Assembly (NCBI GenBank): GCA_964427005.1
Contig: CAYRTL010000007.1
Coordinates: 23,202-87,201 of the forward strand
DNA: 64,000 nucleotides
Origin: an uncultured Acetobacteraceae bacterium
GTDB taxonomy: Bacteria; Pseudomonadota; Alphaproteobacteria; Acetobacterales; Acetobacteraceae
Reading direction: 5' to 3'
Below, piece after piece: positions 49,197 to 63,935 of this stretch. A model generated the notes under the pieces. The model saw only the letters and a program-made list of their open reading frames with translations. It did no database searches and had not been told where the DNA came from. The position numbers were made by a program, and so were the translations under genes. The stretch's first letter is position 1. Each line of letters opens with the position of its first letter.

Positions 49197-49273
49197 GTCC
49201 CCGTAGCTCAGCAGGATAGAGCACAGGATTCCTAATCCTGGGGTCGTGAGTTCGAATCTCGCCGGGGACGCCA
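49197..49273 (+). tRNA. tRNA-Arg (anticodon CCT)
   Basis: gtccccgtagctcagcaggatagagcacaggattcctaatcctggggtcgtgagttcgaatctcgccggggacgcca. Acceptor GTCCCCG/CGGGGAC, anticodon stem cagga/tcctg, loop ttCCTaa. Confidence 0.92.
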
Positions 49274-50046
49274 ATGAGTGCATCAATATAACATGGAATA
49301 AGTAACGAGCCGCCATCACGAATCACTTCGCGCCCGGGCTGCCTCGGACCTAAATTTCGGGCTGTGCGCTCTGATGAGACACCGCCAGCATGGCACCGGC
49401 AGGGACCACGGCTACCATCCCGATTAGAAGATTTTTCCATCCGCCAGTCTGCGACAGCATATTGCGCGGATGCAGACGGCAGTTTCAGCAGACCTAGCTT
49501 CGCTTTCGTAACGCGACGAAACGGAGGCACTGCTGCCATGCCTGGTCCAATGTCCAGACCGAACCGCTCGTCATGCCGCCGGAGCCTCACCCGGAGAGGC
49601 TTCTACGCGCCTACACGCGAGACGAGATCGAACTGAGCGGCGATGAGCCACCTGATCGGCGTTCTCACCCGAATGCGGTTCTTTGCTCCGACCAATGTCA
49701 TCGCGACAGCGGAGGCCGTGGTCAGGGCCATCACGGAGGCGCTGAGCAAGAGCCTCGATCCCGATCCGCTTCTGAAGTTCAGCGAGATCTGCAGGGCAGA
49801 CCTGGACAGCTTGCATCGAAACCAGGGCGTGAAGCGAGCGACTTCGGAACGATGCCGTTCTCCGCCTTCACTCAGGTGCCGTCGAGCTGGAGCGGCAGAC
49901 GATCGGATGATTGGTCAGGCGCCACACCTCGGATACATCCACGCCTTCTGGGTGCTGGGGCTGATCTCGCTGGCGGGTCGAACCTGCTATGGCACCACCT
50001 GCCCGCCTGACAGACGCAACGCCAGGGTCACGGGCGTTGATCTAGA

Positions 50047-50060
50047 TCAATGAGAGCAGC
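50047..50060. promoter_or_regulatory. FNR/FixK-type box, perfect palindrome TTGATCTAGATCAA
   Basis: Exact match to TTGAT-N4-ATCAA. Lies about 220-235 nt upstream of the phosphoketolase start, in an otherwise gene-free tract. Confidence 0.6.
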
Positions 50061-50280
50061 CGGGCTCTAGGCTCTGATTATTTGCCAGTCACCGGAAGTC
50101 ACGCGGCGATGCATTAAGAGCACGAACGGGCCGGCATCATCCGAGAGGGACCTGGGCTTCTGGGGCAAACGGACTACGCCACTAGATCACCGTGACGTGG
50201 AGGACCTGTGCGCCATCGGCCACGTGTCCCGCACATAGCGCAAGACGATAGTTTACCTAACTATGGAGGCGACCGTGACG

Positions 50281-52719
50281 ATGCTTGATCGCCAGTTGAT
50301 GACATCGCATTCAGATGAAGCTCTCAGCGCATATGGACCTGCTCGATCGACGATTACGGGTTCTCCCCTTGGCCACGACGAGCTGCGTAAGATCGACGCC
50401 TATTGGCGGGCCAGCCTGTATCTCTGCCTGGGCATGCTGTACCTCAAGGACAACCCCCTGCTCCGGTCGCCGCTCGAACTGAAGCACACGAAGCCGCGTC
50501 TGTTGGGCCACTGGGGCTCGGACCCTGGCCAATGCTTCACGTACGTCCACTTCAACCGGCTGATCAACAAATACGACCTCGACGCCATCTATGTTTCCGG
50601 ACCCGGACATGGAGCACCGGCGGTCCTGTCCCAGGCGTATCTGGAAGGCAGGTACTCTGAAGTCTATCCAGACAAGAGCGAAGACGTGCGGGGGATGCAA
50701 CGCTTCTTCAAGCAGTTCTCCTTTCCTGGTGGCATCGGTAGCCATGCCACCCCCGAAACGCCCGGCAGCATCCATGAAGGTGGCGAGTTGGGCTACAGCC
50801 TCTCGCACGCCTACGGAACGGTCTTCGATAACCCGGACCTCATTACTCTCGCGGTCGTGGGCGACGGAGAATCGGAAACCGGTCCACTGGCCACCAGTTG
50901 GCACAGCAACAAATTCCTGAATCCAATCATCGATGGCGCAGTGCTGCCGGTCCTGCATCTCAACGGCTACAAGATCAACAACCCGACCATCCTGGCTCGC
51001 ATCAGCCGAGACGAGTTGACGGCACTGTTCACCGGTTACGGATACACGCCGTATTTCGTCGAGGGCAGCGATGCGGACAGCATGCACCAGGCGATGGCGG
51101 CGACCCTGGAGCATTGCGTCCTGGAGATCCGCAAAATCCAGGAAGAGGCGCGCCGCACCGGCCGCGCCTTCCGGCCACGCTGGCCCGTGGTCATCCTGCG
51201 CAGTCCCAAAGGCTGGACAGCCCCGCGAGAGGTGGACGGACATTATCTCGAGGGGTTCTGGCGCGCGCACCAAGTCCCGCTGCCGGATATTGCCACCAAC
51301 CCTGGCCAATTGCGGCTGCTGAAAGAGTGGATGCGCAGCTACAAGCCCGAGGAGCTCTTCGACGAGGAGGGGCGCCTGCTGCCCGAGCTGAAGGCCCTGG
51401 CCCCCACGGGCAACCGGCGTATGAGCGCGAATCCGGTCGCTAACGGCGGTTTGTTGCGCCAGCCTTTGTCGATGCCGGACTTCCGCCAATTCGCCGTCGA
51501 AGTCGAGAAGTGCGGCGCGACCCTGGCGGGGAACGTGCCCGCCCTCGGCAATTTTCTGCGCGAGGTCATGCGGCTGAATATGCGGAACTTCCGCGTGTTC
51601 GGACCGGATGAGACGCAGTCCAACCGGCTGCAGGCTCTCTACGACGTCACCAAGAAAACATGGCTGGCGGAGTACTTTCCGGAGGATGCCGATGGGGGCA
51701 ACCTCGCTCCGGACGGTCGCGTCATGGAGATGCTCAGCGAGCACACCGTGGAAGGATGGCTCGAGGGGTACATCCTGAGCGGCCGGCACGGCTTCCTAAA
51801 CAGTTACGAGTCGTTCATCCACGTCATCGACTCGATGGTGAACCAGCACGCCAAGTGGCTCGACAAGTGCGATGAGCTGCCATGGCGGGCCCCGGTGTCG
51901 TCGCTCAACTTGCTGATCACCGCGCTGGTCTGGCGCCAGGACCACAACGGCTTCACGCACCAGGACCCCGGGTTTCTCGATCTTGTCGTCAACAAGAGTC
52001 CGAGCATCGTGCGCGTTTACCTGCCACCTGATGCCAACTGCCTGCTTTCGGTGGCCGATCATTGCCTGCGCAGCGTCAACTACATCAACGTCATTGTCGC
52101 GGACAAACAGGTCCATCTGCAATACCTCGACATGGACGCGGCGATCGTCCACTGCATGAAGGGCGCCACCATCTGGACCTGGGCGAGCAATGACGCTGAC
52201 GCCGAGCCAGACATCGTCATGGCGAGTTGCGGCGACGTGCCGACGATGGAGTCTCTGGCGGCCACCGCCCTGCTCCGGCAACACTTGCCCGAGCTCAAGG
52301 TCCGGTTCGTCAACGTGGTGGACCTGTTCAAGCTGGTGCCTCACACAGAGCATCCGCACGGGCTGACGGACCACGAGTTCGCAGCCCTTTTCACCCCGCA
52401 CAAGCCTGTGGTCTTCAACTTCCACGCCTATCCGTGGCTGATCCACCGCCTCACTTATCGCCGTCGCGGCCAGCACAACATTCACGTGCGCGGCTATAAG
52501 GAGCAGGGCAACATCAACACACCGCTGGAACTGGCCATTCGCAACCAGACTGACCGTTTCAGCCTCGCCATCGACGCGATCGATCGGGTCCCCCACCTGG
52601 GCGCCAGAGGGGCCGGTGTTCGCGAGGCTCTGCTGAACCAGCAGAGAACTTGCCTGAACCATGCCCACGAATTTGGCGTGGACCCGTTGAACATCACCAA
52701 CTGGGAGTGGCCGTTCTAA
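50281..52719 (+). CDS. xfp: Xylulose-5-phosphate/fructose-6-phosphate phosphoketolase
   Basis: About 812 aa. [33 protein letters not shown] and EGGELGY are phosphoketolase signature stretches. ATG at 50281 has a ggagg RBS. An alternative ATG lies at 50263. Confidence 0.96.
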
Positions 52720-52731
52720 GGAGATCTTTTG

Positions 52732-53790
52732 ATGACCGATGATCTCGAGAGCGTTGCACTGAAGCTGGTTGGCGACGGGAAGGGAATTCTCGCAGCGGAC
52801 GAGACCGTTCACACCTTGACCAGCCGGTTCGATACCCTCGGCATCCCGTCGACCGAGAAGACCCGGTGCGCCTACCGTGAAATGCTCTTTACCGCGGGCG
52901 TGGCCGAGTTCATCAGCGGTGTCATCCTGCAGGACGAAACCATCCGCCAGAACAGCTCTGACGGCACACCGCTCATCCAGCTTCTTTCGCAGCAAGGTAT
53001 CCTGCCGGGCATCAAAGTCGATTTAGGTGCGAAGCCGCTCGCCGGCGCCTCAGGCGAAACAGTTACCGAAGGCCTCGACGGCCTCCGGGATCGCCTGTCG
53101 GGGTACCGCGATATGGGCGCCCTCTTCGCGAAGTGGCGCGCGGTCATCCATGTCAGCGACACTCTGCCGAGCCAGACTTGCATCAGCGCGAATGCGCACG
53201 CGCTGGCGCGGTATGCAGCGCTCTGTCAAGAACAGCATCTCGTTCCTATTGTCGAGCCGGAAGTGCTGATGGACGGGTCGCATTCGATTGAACGCTGCGA
53301 GGAGGTCACCGGAAGAGTCCTTCATGGCGTGTTTTCTGCGCTCGATGCACAGAGGGTCTGGCTGGAGCACATGTTGCTGAAACCCAACATGGTCATTGCC
53401 GGCAAAGAGTGGCCTCATCCGGCTTCGGTTCAGGAGGTTGCTGTCGCCACATCGCGCTGCTTGCGTCGCCACGTTCCGGCGGCAGTGCCGGGTATTGTGT
53501 TCTTGTCAGGCGGCCAGGACGATCGCGCAGCCACGGTCCATTTGGATGCAATTAACCGGCTGCCCGGGAACAAGCCGTGGAAGATCAGTTTTTCCTATGG
53601 GCGTGCACTCCAGGACCACGCGCTGGAGACGTGGCATGGGCGAGACGAGAACTTAGCCGCGGCCCGGCAAGCGCTGCATCAACGCGCCCGTTGTAACAGC
53701 GCAGCCAGTCTCGGCAGGTACACAGATGAGATGGAAGCGTCGGTTAGCATTCCCAGTTCGCCGCATCGCCGTGAATGGCGCGATGACTGA
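52732..53790 (+). CDS. fba: Class I (Schiff-base, eukaryote-type) fructose-bisphosphate aldolase
   Basis: 352 aa, RBS aaggag. KGILAADETVHTLTSRF, IVEPEVLMDG, MLLKPNMV (Schiff-base Lys) and FLSGGQ. Confidence 0.92.
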   Translation: MTDDLESVALKLVGDGKGILAADETVHTLTSRFDTLGIPSTEKTRCAYREMLFTAGVAEFISGVILQDETIRQNSSDGTPLIQLLSQQGILPGIKVDLGAKPLAGASGETVTEGLDGLRDRLSGYRDMGALFAKWRAVIHVSDTLPSQTCISANAHALARYAALCQEQHLVPIVEPEVLMDGSHSIERCEEVTGRVLHGVFSALDAQRVWLEHMLLKPNMVIAGKEWPHPASVQEVAVATSRCLRRHVPAAVPGIVFLSGGQDDRAATVHLDAINRLPGNKPWKISFSYGRALQDHALETWHGRDENLAAARQALHQRARCNSAASLGRYTDEMEASVSIPSSPHRREWRDD

Positions 53791-53818
53791 TCGAGGCGCC
53801 ATCCGAGGGTGTCAAGGT

Positions 53819-53832
53819 TTGACTTAGATCAA
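53819..53832. promoter_or_regulatory. FNR/FixK-type box TTGACTTAGATCAA
   Basis: TTGAC-N4-ATCAA, 28 nt after the fba stop and 54 nt before the amylase ATG (53886). Confidence 0.6.
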
Positions 53833-53885
53833 TGCCAAGCTGCTGGGTAAGCCAGTACTTCGTCCAATTCAGGGGGAACAGCGCG

Positions 53886-55427
53886 ATGGCGATCAGATCA
53901 CTGTGGTGGCGCAGTAGATTGTCAGTGCTCCGGGCGATACGGCTTACGGTCGCCGCTGTTTCCTGTATCACTTTTACTCCATCGCTTCTCGCTTACGCCC
54001 AGGCTGGATTCGACGACGATCGGGTCATGCTCCAGGGCTTTTATTGGGAATCCAGCCGCCACGGATATCCGAAGTTCCTTCAGTTCGGTACTGAACACTG
54101 GTACGCGATCGTAGCGAGAGAAGCTCCCGCCATCCAAGCGGCTGGATTCGATCTTGTGTGGCTGCCTCCGCCCTCTTTCGCTGGTGGCTACAGCGCCGGC
54201 TACGACCCGAAGGAATACTTCGTGCTCGACAACAGCTACGGCAGCCAGCAGGAGCAGCGGGCTGCGCTCGAGTCCCTGCTGGCCGACGGCATCGAGCCGG
54301 TCGCCGATATTGTCATAAATCACCGAAACGGCAGCGAGAAATGGGCTGATTTCAAAAACCCGGCCTGGGGAACCTGGGCAATCACCCGCGATGACGAAGC
54401 ATTCACCAATCCAGCTTCAGAAGTATACAACACGCCCGTCGAGCTTCGTGGCGCACCAGAGGAGAGCCCCCAGTATCGCCCGTCGGGTGACTTTGCGTAC
54501 GCCTCATTCCGTGACATCGATCACACCAATACGCAAGTTCGACGCGACATCATTCGTTATCTTCTTCAGTTGAAGAGCCTCGGATATCGAGGTTGGCGAT
54601 ACGACATGGTACACGGCTACAACGCGAAGTGGATCGCCGTTTACAACAGAGCCACCGCACCGACATTCTCCGTGGGCGAATACGACTGGGATAAGCAGGC
54701 TGAGCAGCGAGGATGGGTATGGTCCACTGCCACAGGCCCGGGTGATCTCACGACTTCCAGCGACGTGTTCGATTTTTCGAGCTTTTTCACGTTGAAAGAC
54801 AACAAGGGACGTTATGCGGCTTGGTATGGCTTCGGCCAGGGCGTCGGTCTCGTCGGGGACAATACCGATGGCCATCCCTGGAAAAATCGGGCCGTCACCT
54901 TCATCGAGAACCATGATACCGGGTACCGTACGAATGAAGACGGCTCACCCGAGAATGGCCATAGCCAGGACAACTTCGCCAACGGATGGGAAGTAGAACA
55001 AGCTTACGCACAGATCCTGACTCACCCCGGAGTTCCGACCGTATTTTGGAAGCACTATTTCGACTGGGGGCCGGATCTTCAGAATAAGATTCACGCCCTC
55101 ATCAATGCGCGGAAGGTGGCAGGCGTCAACGCGGGCAGTACGCTCTATCTCCAGGACAATGCGCGGCAAAGCGGCGTCTATGCGGCCAGGGTTGTAGGTC
55201 GAAATGGCGACCTCTACGTCCGTATCGGGGGCGATGATGCGACGTGGCAACCCTCGAACTCCGGCTACGCGAACTATCGGGAGTATGCGGAGGGAGCTGG
55301 ATGGAAAGTCTGGGTCACTCTCCCGGGCAATCCTGATGTCCAGCATAAGCAGGCCCATGCGCCCTTCCCTGTTCCGACATACCGGCCGGCAGAGACAATC
55401 ACTGTTCCGGATAATTTGCTGAACTAG
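53886..55427 (+). CDS. GH13 alpha-amylase with N-terminal signal peptide
   Basis: ATG at 53886 (RBS ggggga). Signal-like MAIRSLWWRSRLSVLRAIRLTVAAVSCITFTPSLLAYA/QAG. GH13 regions DIVINH, GWRYDMVHGY, FSVGEYDW, FIENHDT. The VMLQGFYWES N-terminus resembles plant/archaeal-type amylases. Confidence 0.9.
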   Translation: MAIRSLWWRSRLSVLRAIRLTVAAVSCITFTPSLLAYAQAGFDDDRVMLQGFYWESSRHGYPKFLQFGTEHWYAIVAREAPAIQAAGFDLVWLPPPSFAGGYSAGYDPKEYFVLDNSYGSQQEQRAALESLLADGIEPVADIVINHRNGSEKWADFKNPAWGTWAITRDDEAFTNPASEVYNTPVELRGAPEESPQYRPSGDFAYASFRDIDHTNTQVRRDIIRYLLQLKSLGYRGWRYDMVHGYNAKWIAVYNRATAPTFSVGEYDWDKQAEQRGWVWSTATGPGDLTTSSDVFDFSSFFTLKDNKGRYAAWYGFGQGVGLVGDNTDGHPWKNRAVTFIENHDTGYRTNEDGSPENGHSQDNFANGWEVEQAYAQILTHPGVPTVFWKHYFDWGPDLQNKIHALINARKVAGVNAGSTLYLQDNARQSGVYAARVVGRNGDLYVRIGGDDATWQPSNSGYANYREYAEGAGWKVWVTLPGNPDVQHKQAHAPFPVPTYRPAETITVPDNLLN

Positions 55428-55500
55428 GCTCTGAGGCCTTTGGCAGTGAACGCAGCAGTCACGGTCGAAGGCCCACCAAGTCTGAGATCGGAGTAGCAAC

Positions 55501-56085
55501 GTGAACGTGTTCTTGATGCGACACGGCGAGACGGCGTGGAGCCTGAGTGGCAGGCACACCAGCACGACGGATCTTCCTTTGACCGATAACGGACGCCGGG
55601 TTGCGGAGAGGCTGCAGCCCGTGCTCGCGAGAGAAACGTTCGCCCGTGTCTTCGTCAGCCCAATGCGGCGCGCGCGAGAGACCTGCGAATTGGCGGGTCT
55701 CGGCAATGCAGCCGTCATCGACCCGGAACTGGCGGAATGGAACTACGGCGAATACGAGGGGCTGACGCCCAAACAGATCCACGAGAAGGTGCCCGGCTGG
55801 CTGATTTTCCGCGACGGTTGCCCGGGCGGCGAAATGCCAGAGCAAGTGAGTGCCAGAGTGGATCGAGTGATCGCCCGGGTCCGCGCTGTTGACGGCGATG
55901 TCGCTGTGTTTGCACACGGACACGTGCTCCGCGTCTTCGTCGCACGGTGGATCGGGCTTCCGGTAGGCGCCGCAGAGCATTTCTTGCTCGATACGGCCAC
56001 ATTGTCCGTTCTGTCCTACTACTACGAACTTCCCGCTGTCAGGGTCTGGAACGGATCCCTGCCGACACAGGATAAGCCGCGATGA
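55501..56085 (+). CDS. Histidine-phosphatase superfamily (phosphoglycerate-mutase-like) protein
   Basis: 194 aa, GTG start. The catalytic RHG motif is in FLMRHGET, with a second His in FAHGHVLRV. Its stop overlaps the glgP start (ATGA). Confidence 0.85.
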   Translation: MNVFLMRHGETAWSLSGRHTSTTDLPLTDNGRRVAERLQPVLARETFARVFVSPMRRARETCELAGLGNAAVIDPELAEWNYGEYEGLTPKQIHEKVPGWLIFRDGCPGGEMPEQVSARVDRVIARVRAVDGDVAVFAHGHVLRVFVARWIGLPVGAAEHFLLDTATLSVLSYYYELPAVRVWNGSLPTQDKPR

Positions 56086-58568
56086 ATGAAGCAAAGCAAC
56101 TCGTCTGTGATCAGGAGCTTCTTACGCGGTACGGCTGTGGCCCGATCCGGTTCTCCGGGCGCGACGACGCCTTGTACGAGCGGCACCTGCTGTTCGACGA
56201 TGTCGTCGCTCCGGAAGAGGCCGGGTCGCGCGAGCGCTTCGAGGCAGCCGCGCGTTCGGTGCGAGATGTGCTGTCGCAACGCTGGATACTGACGGACAGA
56301 ACCTATGACCGGGAGGATCCGAAGCGAATCTACTATCTGTCGATGGAGTTTCTGATCGGGCGGTCGCTCTCCAACAATATCACCAATCTTCTGCTCGATC
56401 CCTTCGCGAAGGAACTCGCCGCCCGGAGCAAGCTCGACCCGCTCGCCATCATCGAACAAGAACCCGATGCCGGGTTGGGCAACGGCGGGCTCGGTCGTTT
56501 GGCGGCCTGCTTTCTCGACTCTATGGCGACGATGCAGCTCCCGGCCATCGGCTACGGGTTGCGTTACGAGTACGGGATGTTCAAACAGTCCATCCAGAAC
56601 GGCTGGCAGCATGAAGAGCCAGACAACTGGCTGCGCCGCCAGGACCCATGGGAAGTGCCGCGTCCGGACGAGGCGGTGGAAGTCAGGCTTAACTGTTCGT
56701 TCGCGCTGCAAGACGGGCACCTGCACCCTGTGGCGGGCCGACCATCTTCGCTGATCGGCATACCGTTCGATCGACCGGTGGTCGGCTATGGCGGCAAGAC
56801 CATCAATACATTGCGCCTGTGGGGCGCCGCTGCGCCAGACTATTTCAATTTCCAGGAATTCAGCACTGGCGATTTTGTCGGCGCCCTGGCTGGGACTCTC
56901 GCAGCTGAATCGCTGACCCGAGTGCTGTACCCAGACGACTCCACAAACATGGGGCAAGGTCTGCGCTTCGGGCAGGAATATTTCCTCGTCGCCTGCTCAT
57001 TGGCCGACCTCGTCCGGCGCTTCCGTCGCAGCAATGCCGATTGGAGCACGTTCCCTGACAAGGTCGCGATTCAACTCAACGATACGCATCCGACGATGGC
57101 AGTGCCGGAGTTGATGCGGATCCTGCTCGACGAGGCGCAGGTCGGCTGGGACCAGGCCTGGGATATGACGCAGAGGACGTTGGCGTACACCAATCACACC
57201 CTGCTGCCCGAAGCGCTCGAGAAATGGCCGCTCGCGTGGTTCGAGATGATGCTGCCGCGCCATCTGGAAATCATCCTCGAGATCAATCGGCGTTTCCTCG
57301 GCGCCGTCCGGAAGCGCTATCCCGGCGACGAGGAGCGGGTGCGGCGCATGAGCCTGGTCGAGGAAGGCGCCGAGCGGAAGATTCGCATGGCCAACCTCGC
57401 CATCGTCGGCTCGCACAGCACCAATGGAGTCGCCGCGATCCACACCGACCTGCTGCGGAAAACTACGGTCAAAGACCTGGCTGAGATGTTTCCGGAGCGT
57501 TTCAACAACAAGACCAACGGCGTCACGCCGCGAAGATGGCTATTGCTGGCGAACCCTGCGCTCGCCGGCACAATCACCGCGGCGATCGGAGACGGCTGGC
57601 TGACCGATCTCAGCCGATTGCGCCAACTGACGCCTCTCGCCGAAGACAAATCCTTTCGTCAGGCGTTCCGCAACGCCACGCAGGAGGCCAAAACGCGCTT
57701 TGCCGATTGGCTCAAGACAACGACTGGACAGATCGTTGACCCCGCCAGCATTTTCGACTGTCAGATCAAGCGCATCCATGAATACAAGCGGCAACTGCTC
57801 AACGCGTTGCGCATAATCGTGCTGTATAACCGGCTGCGTGAGAACCCGGGCCTTGCGACGACGCCGCGCACGTTCTTCTTCGCTGGTAAGGCAGCGCCGG
57901 CCTATCGGCTGGCCAAGCTGATCATCAAATTCATCAATAACCTCGCCGGCACGATCGATGGCGATTCGATCGCGCGAGACCGTCTCAAGGTCGTGTTCCT
58001 CCCGGATTACTGCGTCTCGTTGGCCGAGAGGCTGATTCCGGGCGCCGAGGTCTCCAACCAGATCTCGACCGCCGGTTACGAGGCGAGCGGCACGAGCAAC
58101 ATGAAGTTCATGATGAATGGAGCGCTGACGATTGGCACACGCGACGGCGCGACGATTGAGATGGCGGAAGAGGCCGGCGAGGAGAACTTCTTCCTGTTCG
58201 GCTTGAGTGCCGATGAGGTGGCCGGCAGCCGCAGTTGGTACAATCCGCACTGGCATTACGACAACGAGCCGGAAACCCGCGCCGCGCTGGACCTGATCTT
58301 CTCCGATCATTTCAGCCGCTACGAGCCCGGCATTTTCGCTCCGCTGCGCGACACGCTGCTGACGCAGGGAGACCACTACATGCATCTGGCCGACCTCAAA
58401 TCCTATCTCGAGGCGGACCAGAAGCTGACCGCGTTGTACGCCGACCGCGACGCCTGGGCGCGCAAGGCGATCCTGAACGTGGCATGCAGCGGGAAGTTCT
58501 CCAGCGACCGCACGATCGCCCAATACGCCGCCGAGATCTGGCGAGCGAAGCCGTGTCCGGTGTCGTGA
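56082..58568 (+). CDS. glgP: Glycogen/maltodextrin phosphorylase
   Basis: 828 aa. [33 protein letters not shown] and the PLP lysine region [16 protein letters not shown]. Confidence 0.96.
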
Positions 58569-58581
58569 AAAGGATCAGTGC

Positions 58582-60261
58582 ATGACCATTTCGCCCCTCG
58601 CCGGCAAGCCGGCGCCCGCGGAGATGCTGGTCGATCTGGCCCGCCTCGAACGCGACTATTTCGAACGCAGGCCCGATCTCGACGACCACGAACAACGAGT
58701 CAGCTTCGGGACCAGCGGCCATCGCGGCTCATCGCTGCGCGGCTCCTTCAACGAAGCCCATATCATGGCCATTACCCAAGCCATCTGCGACTTCCGACTG
58801 GCGCACGGAATCAGTGGGCCGTTGTTCATGGGGCGGGATACGCACGCGCTCTCCGAGCCTGCCCAGCGCACAGCGCTCGAGGTTCTCGCCGGCAATCACG
58901 TGCACACCGTTATCCAGCAGAACGATGGGGTGACCCCGACGCCGGTCATCTCGCACGCAATCCTCGTCCACAATCGCGGGCGAAGCGAGCATCTCGCCGA
59001 CGGCATTGTCGTCACCCCTTCGCACAACCCGCCGGAGGATGGCGGGTTCAAGTACAATCCGACGCACGGAGGTCCGGCCGATGTCGACGTGACGCGGTGG
59101 ATCGAGAACCGAGCCAACGAATTGCTGCGCACTGCCAATGCCGGCGTGAAGCGGGTGGGTTTCGCCGCAGCCGTCAACGCCGACACGACGCAGCAGGAAG
59201 ACTTCCTCCTGCCCTACGTCAACGATCTACGCAACGTCGTCGATATGGAGGCGATCCGCGCCGCCCGCCTCAAGCTTGCCGTCGACCCTCTCGGCGGCGC
59301 CGCGGTGCATTATTGGGAACCGATCAACGCGATCTACAAGCTGGACATCGCCGTGACCAACCCGAAGGTTGACCCGACCTTTTCGTTCATGACCGTCGAT
59401 TACGACGGCAAGATCCGCATGGACTGCTCCAGCCCGTATGCGATGGCGCGGCTCGTCGAGCTCAAAAACCGCTACGACGTCGCCTTCGCCAACGACCCGG
59501 ATTCCGATCGGCACGGCATCGTCACACCGTCGTCAGGCCTGATGAACCCTAATCACTATCTGGCCGTGGCCATCCATTATCTGCTCACGCACCGTCCCGA
59601 GTGGCCCGCACGTGCCTTGGTTGGCAAGACGCTGGTTAGCAGCGGGATGATCGACAGGGTCGTGCAAAATCTCGGCCGCCGGCTTCAGGAGGTACCGGTG
59701 GGCTTCAAATGGTTTGTACCGGGACTCCTCAACGGCTCGTGCTGCTTCGGCGGCGAGGAGAGCGCCGGAGCGAGCTTCCTGCGACACGACGGCACAGTCT
59801 GGACGACTGACAAAGACGGCCCGATCATGGGTCTGCTGGCGGCCGAGATCACCGCCCGCACGGGGAAGGACCCGGGCGAGCATTACCGCAAGCTGACCGC
59901 ACAACTCGGAACTCCCCATTACACACGAATCGACGCGCCGGCGACGCCGGATCAGAAGGCCAGGTTGGCGAAGTTGTCCCCCGAAGACGTCAAGGAATCG
60001 CAGCTCGCGGGCGAGCCGATCATCGCCAAACTGTCACGCGCTCCGGCCAACGACGCTCCGATAGGTGGCATCAAGGTCGTGGCCGCGAGCGGTTGGTTTG
60101 CCGCCCGGCCGTCCGGCACGGAGAACCTGTACAAGATCTACGCAGAAAGTTTCATGGACCAATCGCACCTGGACGCCCTCGTCAGCGAAGCGCAGGCGAT
60201 AGTTAAAAATGCCCTGGAGATTCCCGAGGCAAGCCAGGCGCAAGATGGCGGAAAGCGATGA
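58582..60261 (+). CDS. pgm: Phosphoglucomutase (alpha-D-glucose phosphate-specific)
   Basis: 559 aa. The active-site phosphoserine loop [10 protein letters not shown], the metal loop [12 protein letters not shown], and GGEESAG. Confidence 0.95.
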
Positions 60262-61808
60262 TCGGGGGCAGCCAGCCTGCAGGTCCGTGCTTGTTCCCAG
60301 CGGAGTATCGCGCTTCGGGCCTGCTGTTGCATATCACCTCGTTGCCATCGCGCTATGGCATCGGTGATTTCGGCCCGGAAGCCGAGGCGTGGATCGATCG
60401 GCTTGCAGATTCCGGTCAAAGCTGGTGGCAGGCTCTGCCGCTTGGTCCAACGGGGTATTACAATTCGCCTTATTCACCACTGTCGTCCTTCGCCGCGAAC
60501 GAATTGCTGATCAGCCCGGCCCGCCTGATCGAGGACGGCCTGCTTCCGGCCGGTTCCGGCGAAGACCGGTTGTTTCCGGTGGCGGCTGTCGATTATGAGG
60601 CCGTCATTCCCTTCAAGCATCGTTTGGTTGAGCAAGCCTGGTGCAGCTTTTGTGCCGGCGTGCGGCCCGATCTGAAGCCTGACTACGAGCAGTTCTGCCA
60701 CGACCATCACAATTGGCTGGACGATTACGCATTGTTCCGCGCGTTGAGGGACCGTCACGATGGCGCGCATTATCTCGAGTGGCCGGAGGAATTGGTCGGG
60801 CGCGTTCCCGCAGCGATCGCGCAAGCTCGACAAGAGTTGCAAGGCCAGATTGATTCGGTTCGGTTTGCACAGTTCCTCCTTTTCCGCCAAGGAGAAGCCC
60901 TCAAGCGGCGCGCTCGCGCTAAGGGCGTGCGCCTGATCGGCGATCTGCCCTTCTTCGTTGCCGCCGACTCGAGCGATGTGTGGGCAAATCCAGATCTGTT
61001 TCTGCTGGATGATCGCCGTAGGCCGAAGGTTGTCGCTGGCGTCCCGCCGGACTATTTCGCCGCAGATGGCCAGTTGTGGGGCAACCCGGTGTATGACTGG
61101 GATGCTGTTCGCCGTACCGGTTATCGTTGGTGGATACAACGTGTGCGCACCCTGCTGGCGCATGTGGACGTGGTTCGCCTCGACCACTTTCGTGCGTTCG
61201 CAGCTGCGTGGCATGTGCCAGCGGACGCGGCGACCGCACGAGTTGGCGAATGGGTACCGGGGCCGGGCGAAGGCTTCTTTACCGCACTACAGAGCGAACT
61301 AGGCGCTCTACCTTTCATTGCCGAAGATTTGGGGCTGATCACGCCTGATGTGACTGCGCTGCGTGAGCAATTCGAATTGCCCGGACTCCGTGTCCTGCAA
61401 TTCGCCTTCGATGGTGATCCAGCCAATCCCCACCTACCTCAAAACTATGTGACAAACACAGTCGTGTATACAGGCACCCACGACAATCCCACGACGTGCG
61501 GCTGGTTCGAAGACCTGCCAGATCACCAGCGGCAGAATCTATGGAACTACGTGCGGCGCCGCGATGGCGGGAGCCGCGAGGCTGCATCCGCGCTGATGAG
61601 TTTGGCGTGGTCGTCCAACGCGGCGCTCGCGATGGCTCCGTTGCAGGACCTGCTTGCCTTGGGCAAGGAAGCGCGCATGAACGTGCCTGGCTTGGCCCAA
61701 GGCAATTGGCGATGGCGGTGCACGGAAGACTTGCTGAACTCATCCGCCTTCCGTTGGCTCAGTGACCTGACGAGATCCACAAGACGGTCGCACAACCAGC
61801 CGCTATGA
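60258..61808 (+). CDS. malQ: 4-alpha-glucanotransferase (amylomaltase)
   Basis: 516 aa, start overlaps the pgm stop. [34 protein letters not shown] and YTGTHDN are GH77 motifs. Confidence 0.93.
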
Positions 61809-63880
61809 ACTCTATCGAGACGACCGGTCGCAGCTCCCCAATTGGAGCGTCCGTGGGTTGCGGCGGCACCAACTTCAGCCTGTACTCCCGCTCCGCCATT
61901 GCTGTCGATTTGCTGTTCTTCGACAAGGCCGATGATAGCCGGCCCGCGCGCACGATCCGCATCGATCCCGCCACAAATCGCACCTACCACTATTGGCACG
62001 TATTTGTGCCGGATGTGCAGCCTGGGCAGATCTATGGCTACCGCGTGCACGGTCCTTTCGATCCCACCATGGGCATGCGATTTGATCCCTCCAAGGTTCT
62101 CCTCGACCCCTACGGCCGTGCCGTGGCGGTTCCGAGCGGCTACAGTCGCGATGCCGCATCTGGGACTGGCGACAACACCGCAACGGCCATGAAAAGCGTG
62201 GTCGTCAATTCAGGCGCGTACGATTGGGAAGGCGATAAACCGCTGAACACACCATCCTCGCGGACTATCATATACGAAATGCACGTGCGCGGATTCACGC
62301 GACATCCGAATTCGGGCGTGACCGAGTCGAAACTCGGCACGTTCGCCGGTTTGATCGAAAAGATCCCGTACCTGAAGGAGCTGGGCATCACCGCGGTCGA
62401 ACTGCTGCCGGTGTTCCAGTTCGATGCTCAGGACTGCCCTCCCGGACGGGTCAACTACTGGGGTTACTCGCCGGTCTCGTTCTTTGCGCCGCATCAGGCC
62501 TACAGCTCTCGTCCGGATCCGCTCAGTGCGGTGGACGAATTCCGCGACATGGTGAAGGCGCTGCATCGAGCGGGCATCGAGATCATCCTCGACGTCGTGT
62601 TCAACCACAGTGCGGAAGGTGACCACAGCGGGCCGACACTGAGCTTTCGCGGGCTGGACAACGACACCTACTATATTCTGCAAGATGACCGTTCACGGTA
62701 CGCCAACTACAGCGGTACCGGGAATACGCTGGATGCGAATCATCCAGTCGTTCGCCGCATGATTGTCGACAGCCTTCGATATTGGGTCGAGGAGATGCAT
62801 GTGGACGGTTTCCGGTTCGATCTCGCCGCGATTCTGTCGCGCGACGTATCGGGTCAGCCGATGCCAAACCCGCCGGTGCTGTGGGACATTGAATCTGATC
62901 CGCTCCTCGCGGGAACCAAGCTCTTCGCAGAAGCCTGGGACGCTGCTGGCCTGTATCAGGTCGGCAGCTTCATCGGGGACGCCTGGAAGGAGTGGAATGG
63001 ACAATTCCGTGACGACGTCCGCAGCTTTTTCCGTTGCGATGAGGGCACTGTCACGCGCATGGCCGATCGTTTGCTCGGCAGCCCCGATATCTATGGACAC
63101 AAGGAGCGAGAGCCAGAGCAAAGCATCAACTTCGTGACGTGTCACGACGGCTTCACTCTCAACGATCTGGTTTCATTCAACAGCAAACACAACGAGGCGA
63201 ATGGCGAGGGTAACCGAGACGGCTGGGACGATAATCGCAGCTGGAACTTCGGTATCGAGGGCCCAACGGACGATGCTATCGTGGAGAAGCTGCGCAACCG
63301 GCAAGTGAAGAATTTCCTGACCGTAACGATGCTGTCCGTCGGGATGCCCATGATTCTGATGGGCGATGAGGTACGACGCACGCAGAAGGGCAACAACAAT
63401 GCCTACTGCCAGGACAATGAGATCAGTTGGTTCGACTGGACGCTTGTCGCCACGCACTGGGACGTGCATCGCTTCGTGACGCTGCTCGCAACACGTCTCG
63501 AACTGAGCGACGTGGAGCACGAGCGCCTGCGTGTGCCGCTCAGTCAGCTGATCCGGGAGGCAAACAAGGAGTGGCACGGCGTCAAGCTTGGCCAGCCGGA
63601 CTGGCGCGCTTGCTCTCACAGCATTGCCATTACCGCTGAAGTCCCGAGATTGAAGCTGCTGGTTCATGTGATTCTGAATGCATATCGGGAGCCGCTGCAG
63701 TTCGAGCTCCCGTCGGTGCGCGGCGGAGCAGGCGGTCATTGGCTGCGATGGATCGACACCTCCCTCGAGCCGCCGAATGACATCGTTCCCTGGCAGACCG
63801 CGACTGCAGTGCCTGATGGCTCCTATCGTGCGGAGGCACGTTCCGTTGTGGTACTCGGCGCATGGTTGGGAGCCGGATAA
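61805..63880 (+). CDS. glgX: Glycogen debranching enzyme GlgX
   Basis: 691 aa, start overlaps the malQ stop. YWGYSPVSFFAP, ILDVVFNH, VDGFRFDLA, AEAWD and FVTCHDGFTLND. Confidence 0.95.
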   Translation: MNSIETTGRSSPIGASVGCGGTNFSLYSRSAIAVDLLFFDKADDSRPARTIRIDPATNRTYHYWHVFVPDVQPGQIYGYRVHGPFDPTMGMRFDPSKVLLDPYGRAVAVPSGYSRDAASGTGDNTATAMKSVVVNSGAYDWEGDKPLNTPSSRTIIYEMHVRGFTRHPNSGVTESKLGTFAGLIEKIPYLKELGITAVELLPVFQFDAQDCPPGRVNYWGYSPVSFFAPHQAYSSRPDPLSAVDEFRDMVKALHRAGIEIILDVVFNHSAEGDHSGPTLSFRGLDNDTYYILQDDRSRYANYSGTGNTLDANHPVVRRMIVDSLRYWVEEMHVDGFRFDLAAILSRDVSGQPMPNPPVLWDIESDPLLAGTKLFAEAWDAAGLYQVGSFIGDAWKEWNGQFRDDVRSFFRCDEGTVTRMADRLLGSPDIYGHKEREPEQSINFVTCHDGFTLNDLVSFNSKHNEANGEGNRDGWDDNRSWNFGIEGPTDDAIVEKLRNRQVKNFLTVTMLSVGMPMILMGDEVRRTQKGNNNAYCQDNEISWFDWTLVATHWDVHRFVTLLATRLELSDVEHERLRVPLSQLIREANKEWHGVKLGQPDWRACSHSIAITAEVPRLKLLVHVILNAYREPLQFELPSVRGGAGGHWLRWIDTSLEPPNDIVPWQTATAVPDGSYRAEARSVVVLGAWLGAG

Positions 63881-63921
63881 GAGGCACTTTTGCCCCTGAG
63901 TTGACCGTCGATGCGAGCGAG

Positions 63922-63935
63922 TTGACCTAAATCAA
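63922..63935. promoter_or_regulatory. FNR/FixK-type box TTGACCTAAATCAA
   Basis: TTGAC-N4-ATCAA, 41 nt after the glgX stop. Its target gene lies beyond the right window edge or on the minus strand. Confidence 0.5.

Follow-up and report, generated by a model that had tools for sequence, protein, structure and literature searches.

The DNA analysed here (the window) is a stretch of 64,000 nucleotides from an uncultured Acetobacteraceae bacterium (assembly GCA_964427005.1, contig CAYRTL010000007.1, positions 23,202 to 87,201 of the forward strand). Its last part contains a gene cluster with a phosphoketolase (xfp), a class I fructose-bisphosphate aldolase (FBA) and a small histidine phosphatase, for whose gene the working name hisP is used in the following. 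Based on these three genes, the initial annotation had proposed a closed loop, in which the erythrose 4-phosphate (E4P) left by phosphoketolase is recycled via sedoheptulose 1,7-bisphosphate (SBP) and hexose phosphate is converted almost completely to acetyl phosphate. The open reading frame (ORF) listing together with profile searches showed a co-directional run of eight genes on the plus strand, namely xfp, class I fba, a GH13 amylase gene, hisP, glgP, pgm, malQ and glgX. The features of the region are:

49197-49273, plus strand: tRNA-Arg(CCT), found with ARAGORN
50037-50050, no strand assigned: FNR/FixK-type box 1, perfectly palindromic (TTGATCTAGATCAA), from the motif scan, about 215-230 bp 5' of the xfp start
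50263-52719, plus strand: phosphoketolase Xfp, 818 amino acids (Pfam XFP_N/XFP/XFP_C; NCBIfam NF003617 with 1495 bits, cut-off 1143)
52729-53790, plus strand: class I FBA (PF00274, E 4.5e-133; equivalog NF033379 with 485 bits, cut-off 250)
53819-53832, no strand assigned: FNR/FixK-type box 2 with one mismatch (TTGACTTAGATCAA) from the motif scan, in the gap between fba and the amylase gene
53886-55427, plus strand: GH13 alpha-amylase (Pfam/NCBIfam), longest ORF from 53832
55501-56085, plus strand: hisP, His_Phos_1 protein of 194 amino acids (PF00300, E 6.5e-49, 166.7 bits, cut-off 21.7)
56082-58568, plus strand: glycogen/maltodextrin phosphorylase GlgP (PF00343; TIGR02093 with 1060 bits)
58582-60261, plus strand: alpha-phosphoglucomutase Pgm (TIGR01132 with 901 bits, above the cut-off)
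60258-61808, plus strand: 4-alpha-glucanotransferase MalQ (PF02446; NF011080)
61805-63880, plus strand: glycogen debranching enzyme GlgX (TIGR02100 with 713 bits)
63922-63935, no strand assigned: FNR/FixK-type box 3 with one mismatch from the motif scan, directly 3' of glgX and close to the contig end

The three genes named in the initial annotation were found co-directional at the positions given there (its start of xfp at 50281 is an in-frame alternative), and the amylase gene together with box 2 does separate fba from the phosphatase gene. Although genes and positions were correct, the block had been drawn too short, as the run goes on through glgP, pgm, malQ and glgX. The stop of xfp and the start of fba are about 10 bp apart, the gap between glgP and pgm comprises 13 bp, and 4-bp overlaps are present at three junctions (hisP/glgP, pgm/malQ and malQ/glgX). 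At the first of these, the start of glgP and the stop of hisP share the 4 bp ATGA, by which the two genes are translationally coupled.

The longest ORF of the amylase starts at 53832 and falls inside box 2. The true start is probably the ATG at 53886, with a Shine-Dalgarno-like GGGGGAA just 5' of it, and reading from this position predicts a signal peptide (MAIRSLWW...LLAYA, given as MAIRSLWWRSRLSVLRAIRLTVAAVSCITFTPSLLAYA) with cleavage before QA. Between the tRNA gene and the cluster, about 770 bp carry no convincing genes (tract to ~50046), and tRNA-Arg(CCT) with this gene-poor tract likely marks the edge of an acquired block. Past the window, the contig runs on for about 400 bp, and the far border of the presumed block lies beyond the sequence.

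Placement of the histidine phosphatase

HisP comprises the catalytic residues R7, H8, R57, E79 and H141, which are invariant across 38 relatives in the family alignment, and its profile score together with these residues assigns it to branch 1 of the histidine phosphatase superfamily (PF00300). When all PDB sequences were searched with phmmer, the best match was Rv3214/GPM2 of M. tuberculosis (2a6p; E 5e-39, 137 bits), followed by yeast Shb17/YKR043C (E 2.5e-27, 99 bits, 30% identity). The alpha-ribazole phosphatases came as third functional class (E 1e-16), and PhoE, PspA and GpgP matched with E-values of ~1e-11 to 7e-9 (GpgP, 4pz9: E 7e-9, 38.7 bits), while no cofactor-dependent phosphoglycerate mutase (dPGM) was found below E 1e-5 in this search. 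Among the NCBIfam models, the Rv3214-type model NF009993/PRK13462 ranked first with 162.6 bits, under its cut-off of 226, and the score was below the cut-off for every equivalog model.

An AlphaFold2 model of HisP on the family alignment reached a pLDDT of 94. Foldseek ranked 2a6p first for this model (TM 0.91, root-mean-square deviation 1.2 Å, 187 columns, 40% identity), and the complexes of Shb17 with SBP and with fructose 1,6-bisphosphate (FBP), 3oi7 and 3ll4, gave a TMq of 0.82-0.83. In a quick maximum-likelihood tree, Rv3214 and Shb17 grouped with the HisP family against the three other histidine phosphatases of the genome (SH-aLRT 86, long branches); this grouping is suggestive only. Compared to GpgP (38.7 bits) and GpmB (51 bits, cut-off 261), the Rv3214/Shb17 side is far ahead. 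The relation to Shb17 considered in the initial annotation gained support: HisP probably falls into the branch that holds Shb17, and Rv3214/GPM2, the solved structure closest to it, has been demonstrated to be a fructose-1,6-bisphosphatase (FBPase).

HisP resembles Rv3214/GPM2 in its length of ~200 amino acids, in the same RHG catalytic set and in the motifs EW(N/D)YG-YEG and GCPxGE. Genetics and kinetics identified GPM2 as a metal-independent, lithium-resistant FBPase (Ganapathy et al. 2015, PMC4535450), which is 31% identical to YK23/Shb17, an enzyme with FBPase as well as sedoheptulose-1,7-bisphosphatase (SBPase) activity (PMC4535450). Since GPM2 is an FBPase and Shb17 an FBPase and SBPase, both characterised relatives are sugar bisphosphatases. 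HisP can be considered a candidate FBP/SBP bisphosphatase by its relationships, with FBP and/or SBP as the presumed substrate.

The two relatives also differ from HisP. GPM2 is described only as a back-up gluconeogenic FBPase (PMC4535450), whereas hisP sits in operons of phosphoketolase, the pentose phosphate pathway (PPP) and glucan phosphorolysis. Shb17/YK23 (PDB 3f3k, 3ll4, 3oi7), the SBPase of riboneogenesis, has the subfamily motifs in common with HisP and acts after an aldolase which makes SBP from E4P and dihydroxyacetone phosphate (DHAP), the very chemistry put forward in the initial annotation. However, it is ~70 residues longer than HisP through insertions (TMt 0.62), and the position of its Tyr24 is His19 in HisP and Rv3214.

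According to the alignment (loci L058-L083), the HisP family comprises two subclades that differ in their C-terminus and both include members adjacent to xfp. Subclade 1, the type of the window, ends with ...YY(R/H)xxPAV(K/R)xWN(A/G)P and subclade 2 with ...YEHxLSxPVIRLWNDxxH, and in the latter FSSGH replaces FAHGH.

Neighbourhood of hisP in other genomes and low-oxygen boxes

A scan of GTDB species genomes revealed at least 343 relatives of HisP, and the best 80 loci (54-84% identity, about ten phyla) were examined. These span Alphaproteobacteria, Acidobacteriota, Nitrospirota, Binatia, Methylomirabilota, deltaproteobacterial lineages, Verrucomicrobiota and Planctomycetota. Neighbours were called by tblastn with the window proteins, clustering of adjacent ORFs and Pfam checks. 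In 32 of the 80 loci xfp lay within 3 kb of hisP, and in 24 it was located immediately 5' in the same direction. True xfp genes were present in only about 17 of 400 evenly sampled genomes of the window's class, and measured against this frequency the linkage of xfp and hisP is far beyond chance.

Within 10 kb of hisP, class I FBA (fbaI) was found at 19 loci, acetate kinase (ack) at 18, GlgP at 17, a beta-PGM-like HAD protein at 16, transaldolase (tal) and Pgm at 12 each, Pgi at 9 and transketolase (tkt) at 5, and a GH65 phosphorylase was located within about 3.5 kb at 12 loci. The co-occurrence expected from the initial annotation recurs, as xfp, class I FBA and hisP occur jointly at 13 of the 80 loci (Alphaproteobacteria, Nitrospirota, Binatia and deltaproteobacterial metagenome-assembled genomes, MAGs), and they also make up tight operons on two plasmids of cultured strains. 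The plasmid of Lichenicola cladoniae carries tpiA-glk-xfp-fbaI-hisP flanked by insertion sequence elements, and on that of Polymorphobacter megasporae the order is gnd-tal-pgi-rpiA-xfp-fbaI-hisP, where stops and starts overlap. On pSymA of S. meliloti the order is pta-ackA ... adhP-xfp-hisP-GH94. Pairs of xfp and hisP without a glucan gene are common (e.g. L030, L031, L037, L038, L057, L061, L066, L085 and L087), and tal adjoins hisP in some other loci. Altogether, the constant partners of hisP are phosphoketolase and enzymes rearranging sugar phosphates, while the glucan or disaccharide phosphorylase is variable.

The tree of hisP mixes phyla, with 25 label changes compared to a minimum of 9, and copies of 81-85% identity are present in Acidobacteria and Armatimonadota MAGs. 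From both observations, the cassette appears to spread horizontally.

Further observations were made at single loci. In the rhizobial loci (L011, L014, L057 and L120, the latter at pSymA 1223864-1248424), a GH94 phosphorylase of ~1300 amino acids and a 'glucoamylase family' protein lie 3' of xfp-hisP, where GlgP is located in the window; the 5' part of the pSymA block comprises pta-ackA-fabI, a CBS protein and adhP. On plasmid p1 of Streptomyces fungicidicus, a 48%-identical actinobacterial homologue ends a zwf-opcA-pgi-gnd operon, which links the wider family with the PPP even without phosphoketolase. The homologue on the plasmid of M. alcaliphilum 20Z (1944-2618, 49% identity) lies amid feoB, a P-type ATPase and a ZIP transporter, and no genes of sugar metabolism surround it; judged from these metal-transport neighbours, some members of the wider family are outside the role proposed below. 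In the closest relative, a long-read MAG (contig_20377, loci L006/L008), xfp, fba and glgX are each in two pieces and RHRET replaces RHGET in HisP. These splits and odd substitutions are probably assembly errors and not signs of pseudogenes.

The boxes of the window were compared to the consensus TTGAT-N4-ATCAA. Their number of three, compared to 1.16 expected, was reached in 9 of 100 shuffles, so the count alone is not significant. Box 2 is placed to suit a transcript start near 53867; at ~60 bp 5' of the amylase start at 53886, it would supply an own promoter to the amylase gene and the genes 3' of it. A scan for promoter and terminator consensus sequences yielded nothing exceeding the shuffled background. 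In the nearest alphaproteobacterial relatives (L008, L010 and L023), perfect boxes precede xfp, glgX or hisP: the first has the identical box 174 bp 5' of xfp, the second two perfect boxes 5' of xfp and the third one 5' of hisP. One-mismatch boxes are located 5' of fbaI in two Ensifer loci. By background, 0.04 boxes occur per kb. As in the FixK/FNR regulons of alphaproteobacteria, TTGAT-N4-ATCAA boxes occur in promoter position. The phosphoketolase of R. palustris is predicted to be a target of FixK and depended on FixK for its expression under one of the tested growth conditions, and that of B. diazoefficiens is induced by microoxia (PMC3050613, PMC6515984). Based on the boxes conserved in relatives and on these data for phosphoketolase elsewhere, FNR/FixK-type low-oxygen control of the cluster is likely.

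A proposed cycle from glycogen to acetyl phosphate

Taking these data together, it seems rather probable that the region 50037-63935 represents an FNR/FixK-type low-oxygen operon, by which glycogen is converted to acetyl phosphate via a cycle of phosphoketolase, FBA and HisP. GlgP, MalQ and GlgX would free glucose 1-phosphate from glycogen at no ATP cost, and Pgm and Pgi (the latter encoded elsewhere) would convert it to fructose 6-phosphate (F6P). Xfp would then cleave F6P and xylulose 5-phosphate to acetyl phosphate and E4P or glyceraldehyde 3-phosphate (GAP), respectively, and the class I aldolase would join DHAP to GAP or E4P, giving FBP or SBP. The removal of the 1-phosphate by HisP, as a bisphosphatase of the Rv3214/GPM2-Shb17 type that needs no metal, would be the irreversible step. 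The resulting F6P or sedoheptulose 7-phosphate (S7P) would return into the rearrangements by transketolase (and transaldolase) and from there to Xfp. Per glucosyl unit, up to three acetyl phosphate and, via acetate kinase, three ATP would be formed with zero net redox change. Such redox-neutral ATP would suit a respiratory bacterium that runs out of oxygen. The cleavage of F6P by the Xfp of the window, the cyclic flux and the oxygen control are inferred here.

The host genome (assembly 92% complete, 234 contigs) encodes all enzymes of a cycle of the non-oxidative glycolysis (NOG) type, i.e. Xfp, FBA, an FBP/SBPase candidate, transketolase, transaldolase, Tpi, Rpe, Rpi and Ack/Pta. Outside the cluster, GlpX (FBP/SBPase), a short transaldolase, Tkt, Tpi, Rpe, RpiA, Pgi, Ack and PTA-domain proteins were identified. 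The class I FBA of the cluster was the only FBA detected by tblastn and PF01116 searches; in the same assembly neither a class I FBPase nor a class II FBA (PF01116) was found. Phosphofructokinase gave no match with PF00365, the only phosphofructokinase type searched; on this basis, a futile cycle with a bisphosphatase may be absent. A second xfp, 61% identical to that of the window, stands alone on another contig (C152:5308-7704, minus strand). It adjoins a gene with a Ppx/GppA-like N-terminus, as judged by eye, with no hisP, FBA or ack alongside. Furthermore, paralogues are present in the genome for glgP (four) and for glgX (several).

Of the bisphosphatase-closed phosphoketolase loop proposed in the initial annotation, the co-occurrence of the genes stood up and the placement of HisP near Shb17 gained support, whereas a route specific for SBP is not needed. 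With transaldolase and GlpX encoded in the genome, and with tal next to hisP at other loci, the SBP branch is possible but not required, and a cycle depending on FBP fits the data equally well as one depending on SBP.

Comparable cycles have been constructed: an E. coli strain with NOG (PMC5889684) and the SBPase cycle with trifunctional phosphoketolase (SCTPK), of which the yeast version used Shb17 (PMC10468489). They likewise rely on phosphoketolase, on aldolase and on an FBP/SBP bisphosphatase as the irreversible step, together with Tkt, Tal, Rpe, Rpi and Tpi, and the predicted outcome, up to three acetyl phosphate per hexose phosphate with neither loss of CO2 nor redox change, is the same. 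In contrast to these engineered systems, xfp, fba and hisP form a natural cassette, apparently spread horizontally, which would be fed by glycogen phosphorolysis and is apparently switched on by low oxygen. The bifid shunt and the heterofermentative pathway are similar in that Xfp and acetate kinase gain ATP from sugar phosphate and E4P is handled by Tal/Tkt. In the classical bifid shunt, GAP proceeds to lactate or pyruvate, and an aldolase/bisphosphatase recycling is absent. In the literature searched, no paper was found that links phosphoketolase with a histidine phosphatase in bacteria.

Several observations weigh against the proposed cycle. At 24 of the 80 hisP loci, none of the searched sugar-phosphate genes was located within 10 kb. 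A true xfp was found in about 17 of the 400 genomes sampled evenly from the window's class and a hisP orthologue in none, and compared to this frequency of xfp, phosphoketolase usually works without HisP, which is a rare optional add-on. Judged from the score of 162.6 bits below the cut-off of 226, HisP belongs to a sister group of the Rv3214-type family and is not its equivalog, and the Km of GPM2 itself for FBP is high (5.5 mM), an enzyme which accepts several substrates (PMC4535450). In the host, the presence of GlpX makes HisP formally redundant, and the sole detected FBA may be a housekeeping gluconeogenic aldolase. Finally, an exported amylase fits poorly to a purely cytoplasmic pathway.

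These observations leave room for other explanations of hisP. As a broad relief valve, it could dephosphorylate surplus E4P, S7P, F6P or glucose 6-phosphate when GlgP and Xfp tie up inorganic phosphate, and no cycle would be closed. An earlier description of Rv3214 as a broad acid phosphatase on several phosphosugars (summarised in PMC4535450) supports this, as do the sub-cut-off scores of HisP on each equivalog model and the company of diverse phosphorylases (GlgP, GH65 and GH94), all of which consume phosphate and produce sugar phosphates. However, a wasteful enzyme would be out of place in the tight, overlapping operons that hold the recycling enzymes encoded by tpiA, fba, tal and rpiA, and both characterised relatives physiologically prefer bisphosphates; this explanation is regarded as unlikely. 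A function in glucan metabolism, either as a phosphatase of phosphoglucan (glycogen phosphomonoester) or of glucose 1-phosphate or glucose 1,6-bisphosphate tuning GlgP and Pgm, is suggested by the translational coupling of hisP and glgP in the window and by glgP and pgm within 3 kb of hisP at 14 and 9 of the 80 loci, respectively. It is nonetheless very unlikely, as many xfp-hisP loci are free of glucan genes and the hisP copies of Streptomyces and Polymorphobacter lie in PPP operons. The phosphoglucan phosphatase, which the initial annotation had listed as an alternative, was rejected since the link to xfp holds where glucan genes are absent. We know of no phosphoglucan phosphatase within the histidine phosphatase superfamily.

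If, on the other hand, FBA were a housekeeping gluconeogenic aldolase and hisP the passenger of a mobile cassette, the two would be adjacent without sharing a function. This would agree with the lack of a second FBA in the assembly searches, the tRNA gene beside the cluster, the phylum-mixing tree and the rarity of hisP in its class. Since neutral passengers would not persist in this way, the order xfp to hisP, the 4-bp overlaps and the co-directionality, all retained in about ten phyla and both HisP subclades, make this highly improbable. The other known functions of the superfamily, i.e. dPGM (GpmA/GpmB), GpgP, alpha-ribazole phosphatase (CobC) and phosphoserine phosphatase, share the fold with HisP, which matches all of them weakly, but each was rejected on its score. 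GpmB gave 51 bits against its cut-off of 261 and the other dPGM models 20-42 bits against 82-401, CobC gave 97 against 163 and PspA 51 against 350 (all NCBIfam), and GpgP (Rv2419c, 4pz9) remained far behind the 137 bits of Rv3214. The GpgP-type phosphatase and the cofactor-dependent mutase considered in the initial annotation are dismissed with them. Moreover, GpgS is absent from the eight cluster genes and not among the annotated recurrent neighbours of related loci, no cobalamin or serine-pathway genes occur in the cluster or these loci, and Rv3214 showed negligible mutase activity (PMC4535450), so that a function of this group is extremely unlikely.

Implications of a possible natural non-oxidative glycolysis

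The bisphosphatase-closed phosphoketolase cycle also allows a wider, more tentative reading, in which xfp-fba-hisP is the core of a natural, complete NOG: a mobile cassette that plugs into the phosphorylase of its host (GlgP, GH65 or GH94), ferments stored glucan to acetate, yielding ~3 ATP for each glucosyl unit without a redox by-product, and thereby lets the cell survive anoxia. The hosts could, with the same reserve, be described as soil and water bacteria with a strictly respiratory metabolism (Alphaproteobacteria, Nitrospira, Acidobacteriota, anammox Planctomycetes and Verrucomicrobiota). It is also conceivable, albeit doubtful, that a regulation-free bisphosphatase of the histidine phosphatase type is used since classical AMP-sensitive FBPases stop in energy-starved cells.

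NOG is a landmark of metabolic engineering, as sugar is converted to C2 units without loss of carbon, and the engineered version needed an added phosphoketolase and a boosted bisphosphatase. If the proposal is true, evolution would have arrived at the same solution as the engineers, who in turn would gain a small metal-independent bisphosphatase; its presumed freedom from the allosteric control of classical FBPases would add to this advantage. A function would be assigned to an abundant family, which is present in at least 343 GTDB species and comprises thousands of metagenome proteins labelled only 'histidine phosphatase' or 'PhoE'. The many puzzling phosphoketolase genes of rhizobia, Nitrospira, anammox bacteria and other respiratory bacteria would obtain a role in providing redox-neutral ATP from storage glucan at the loss of oxygen.

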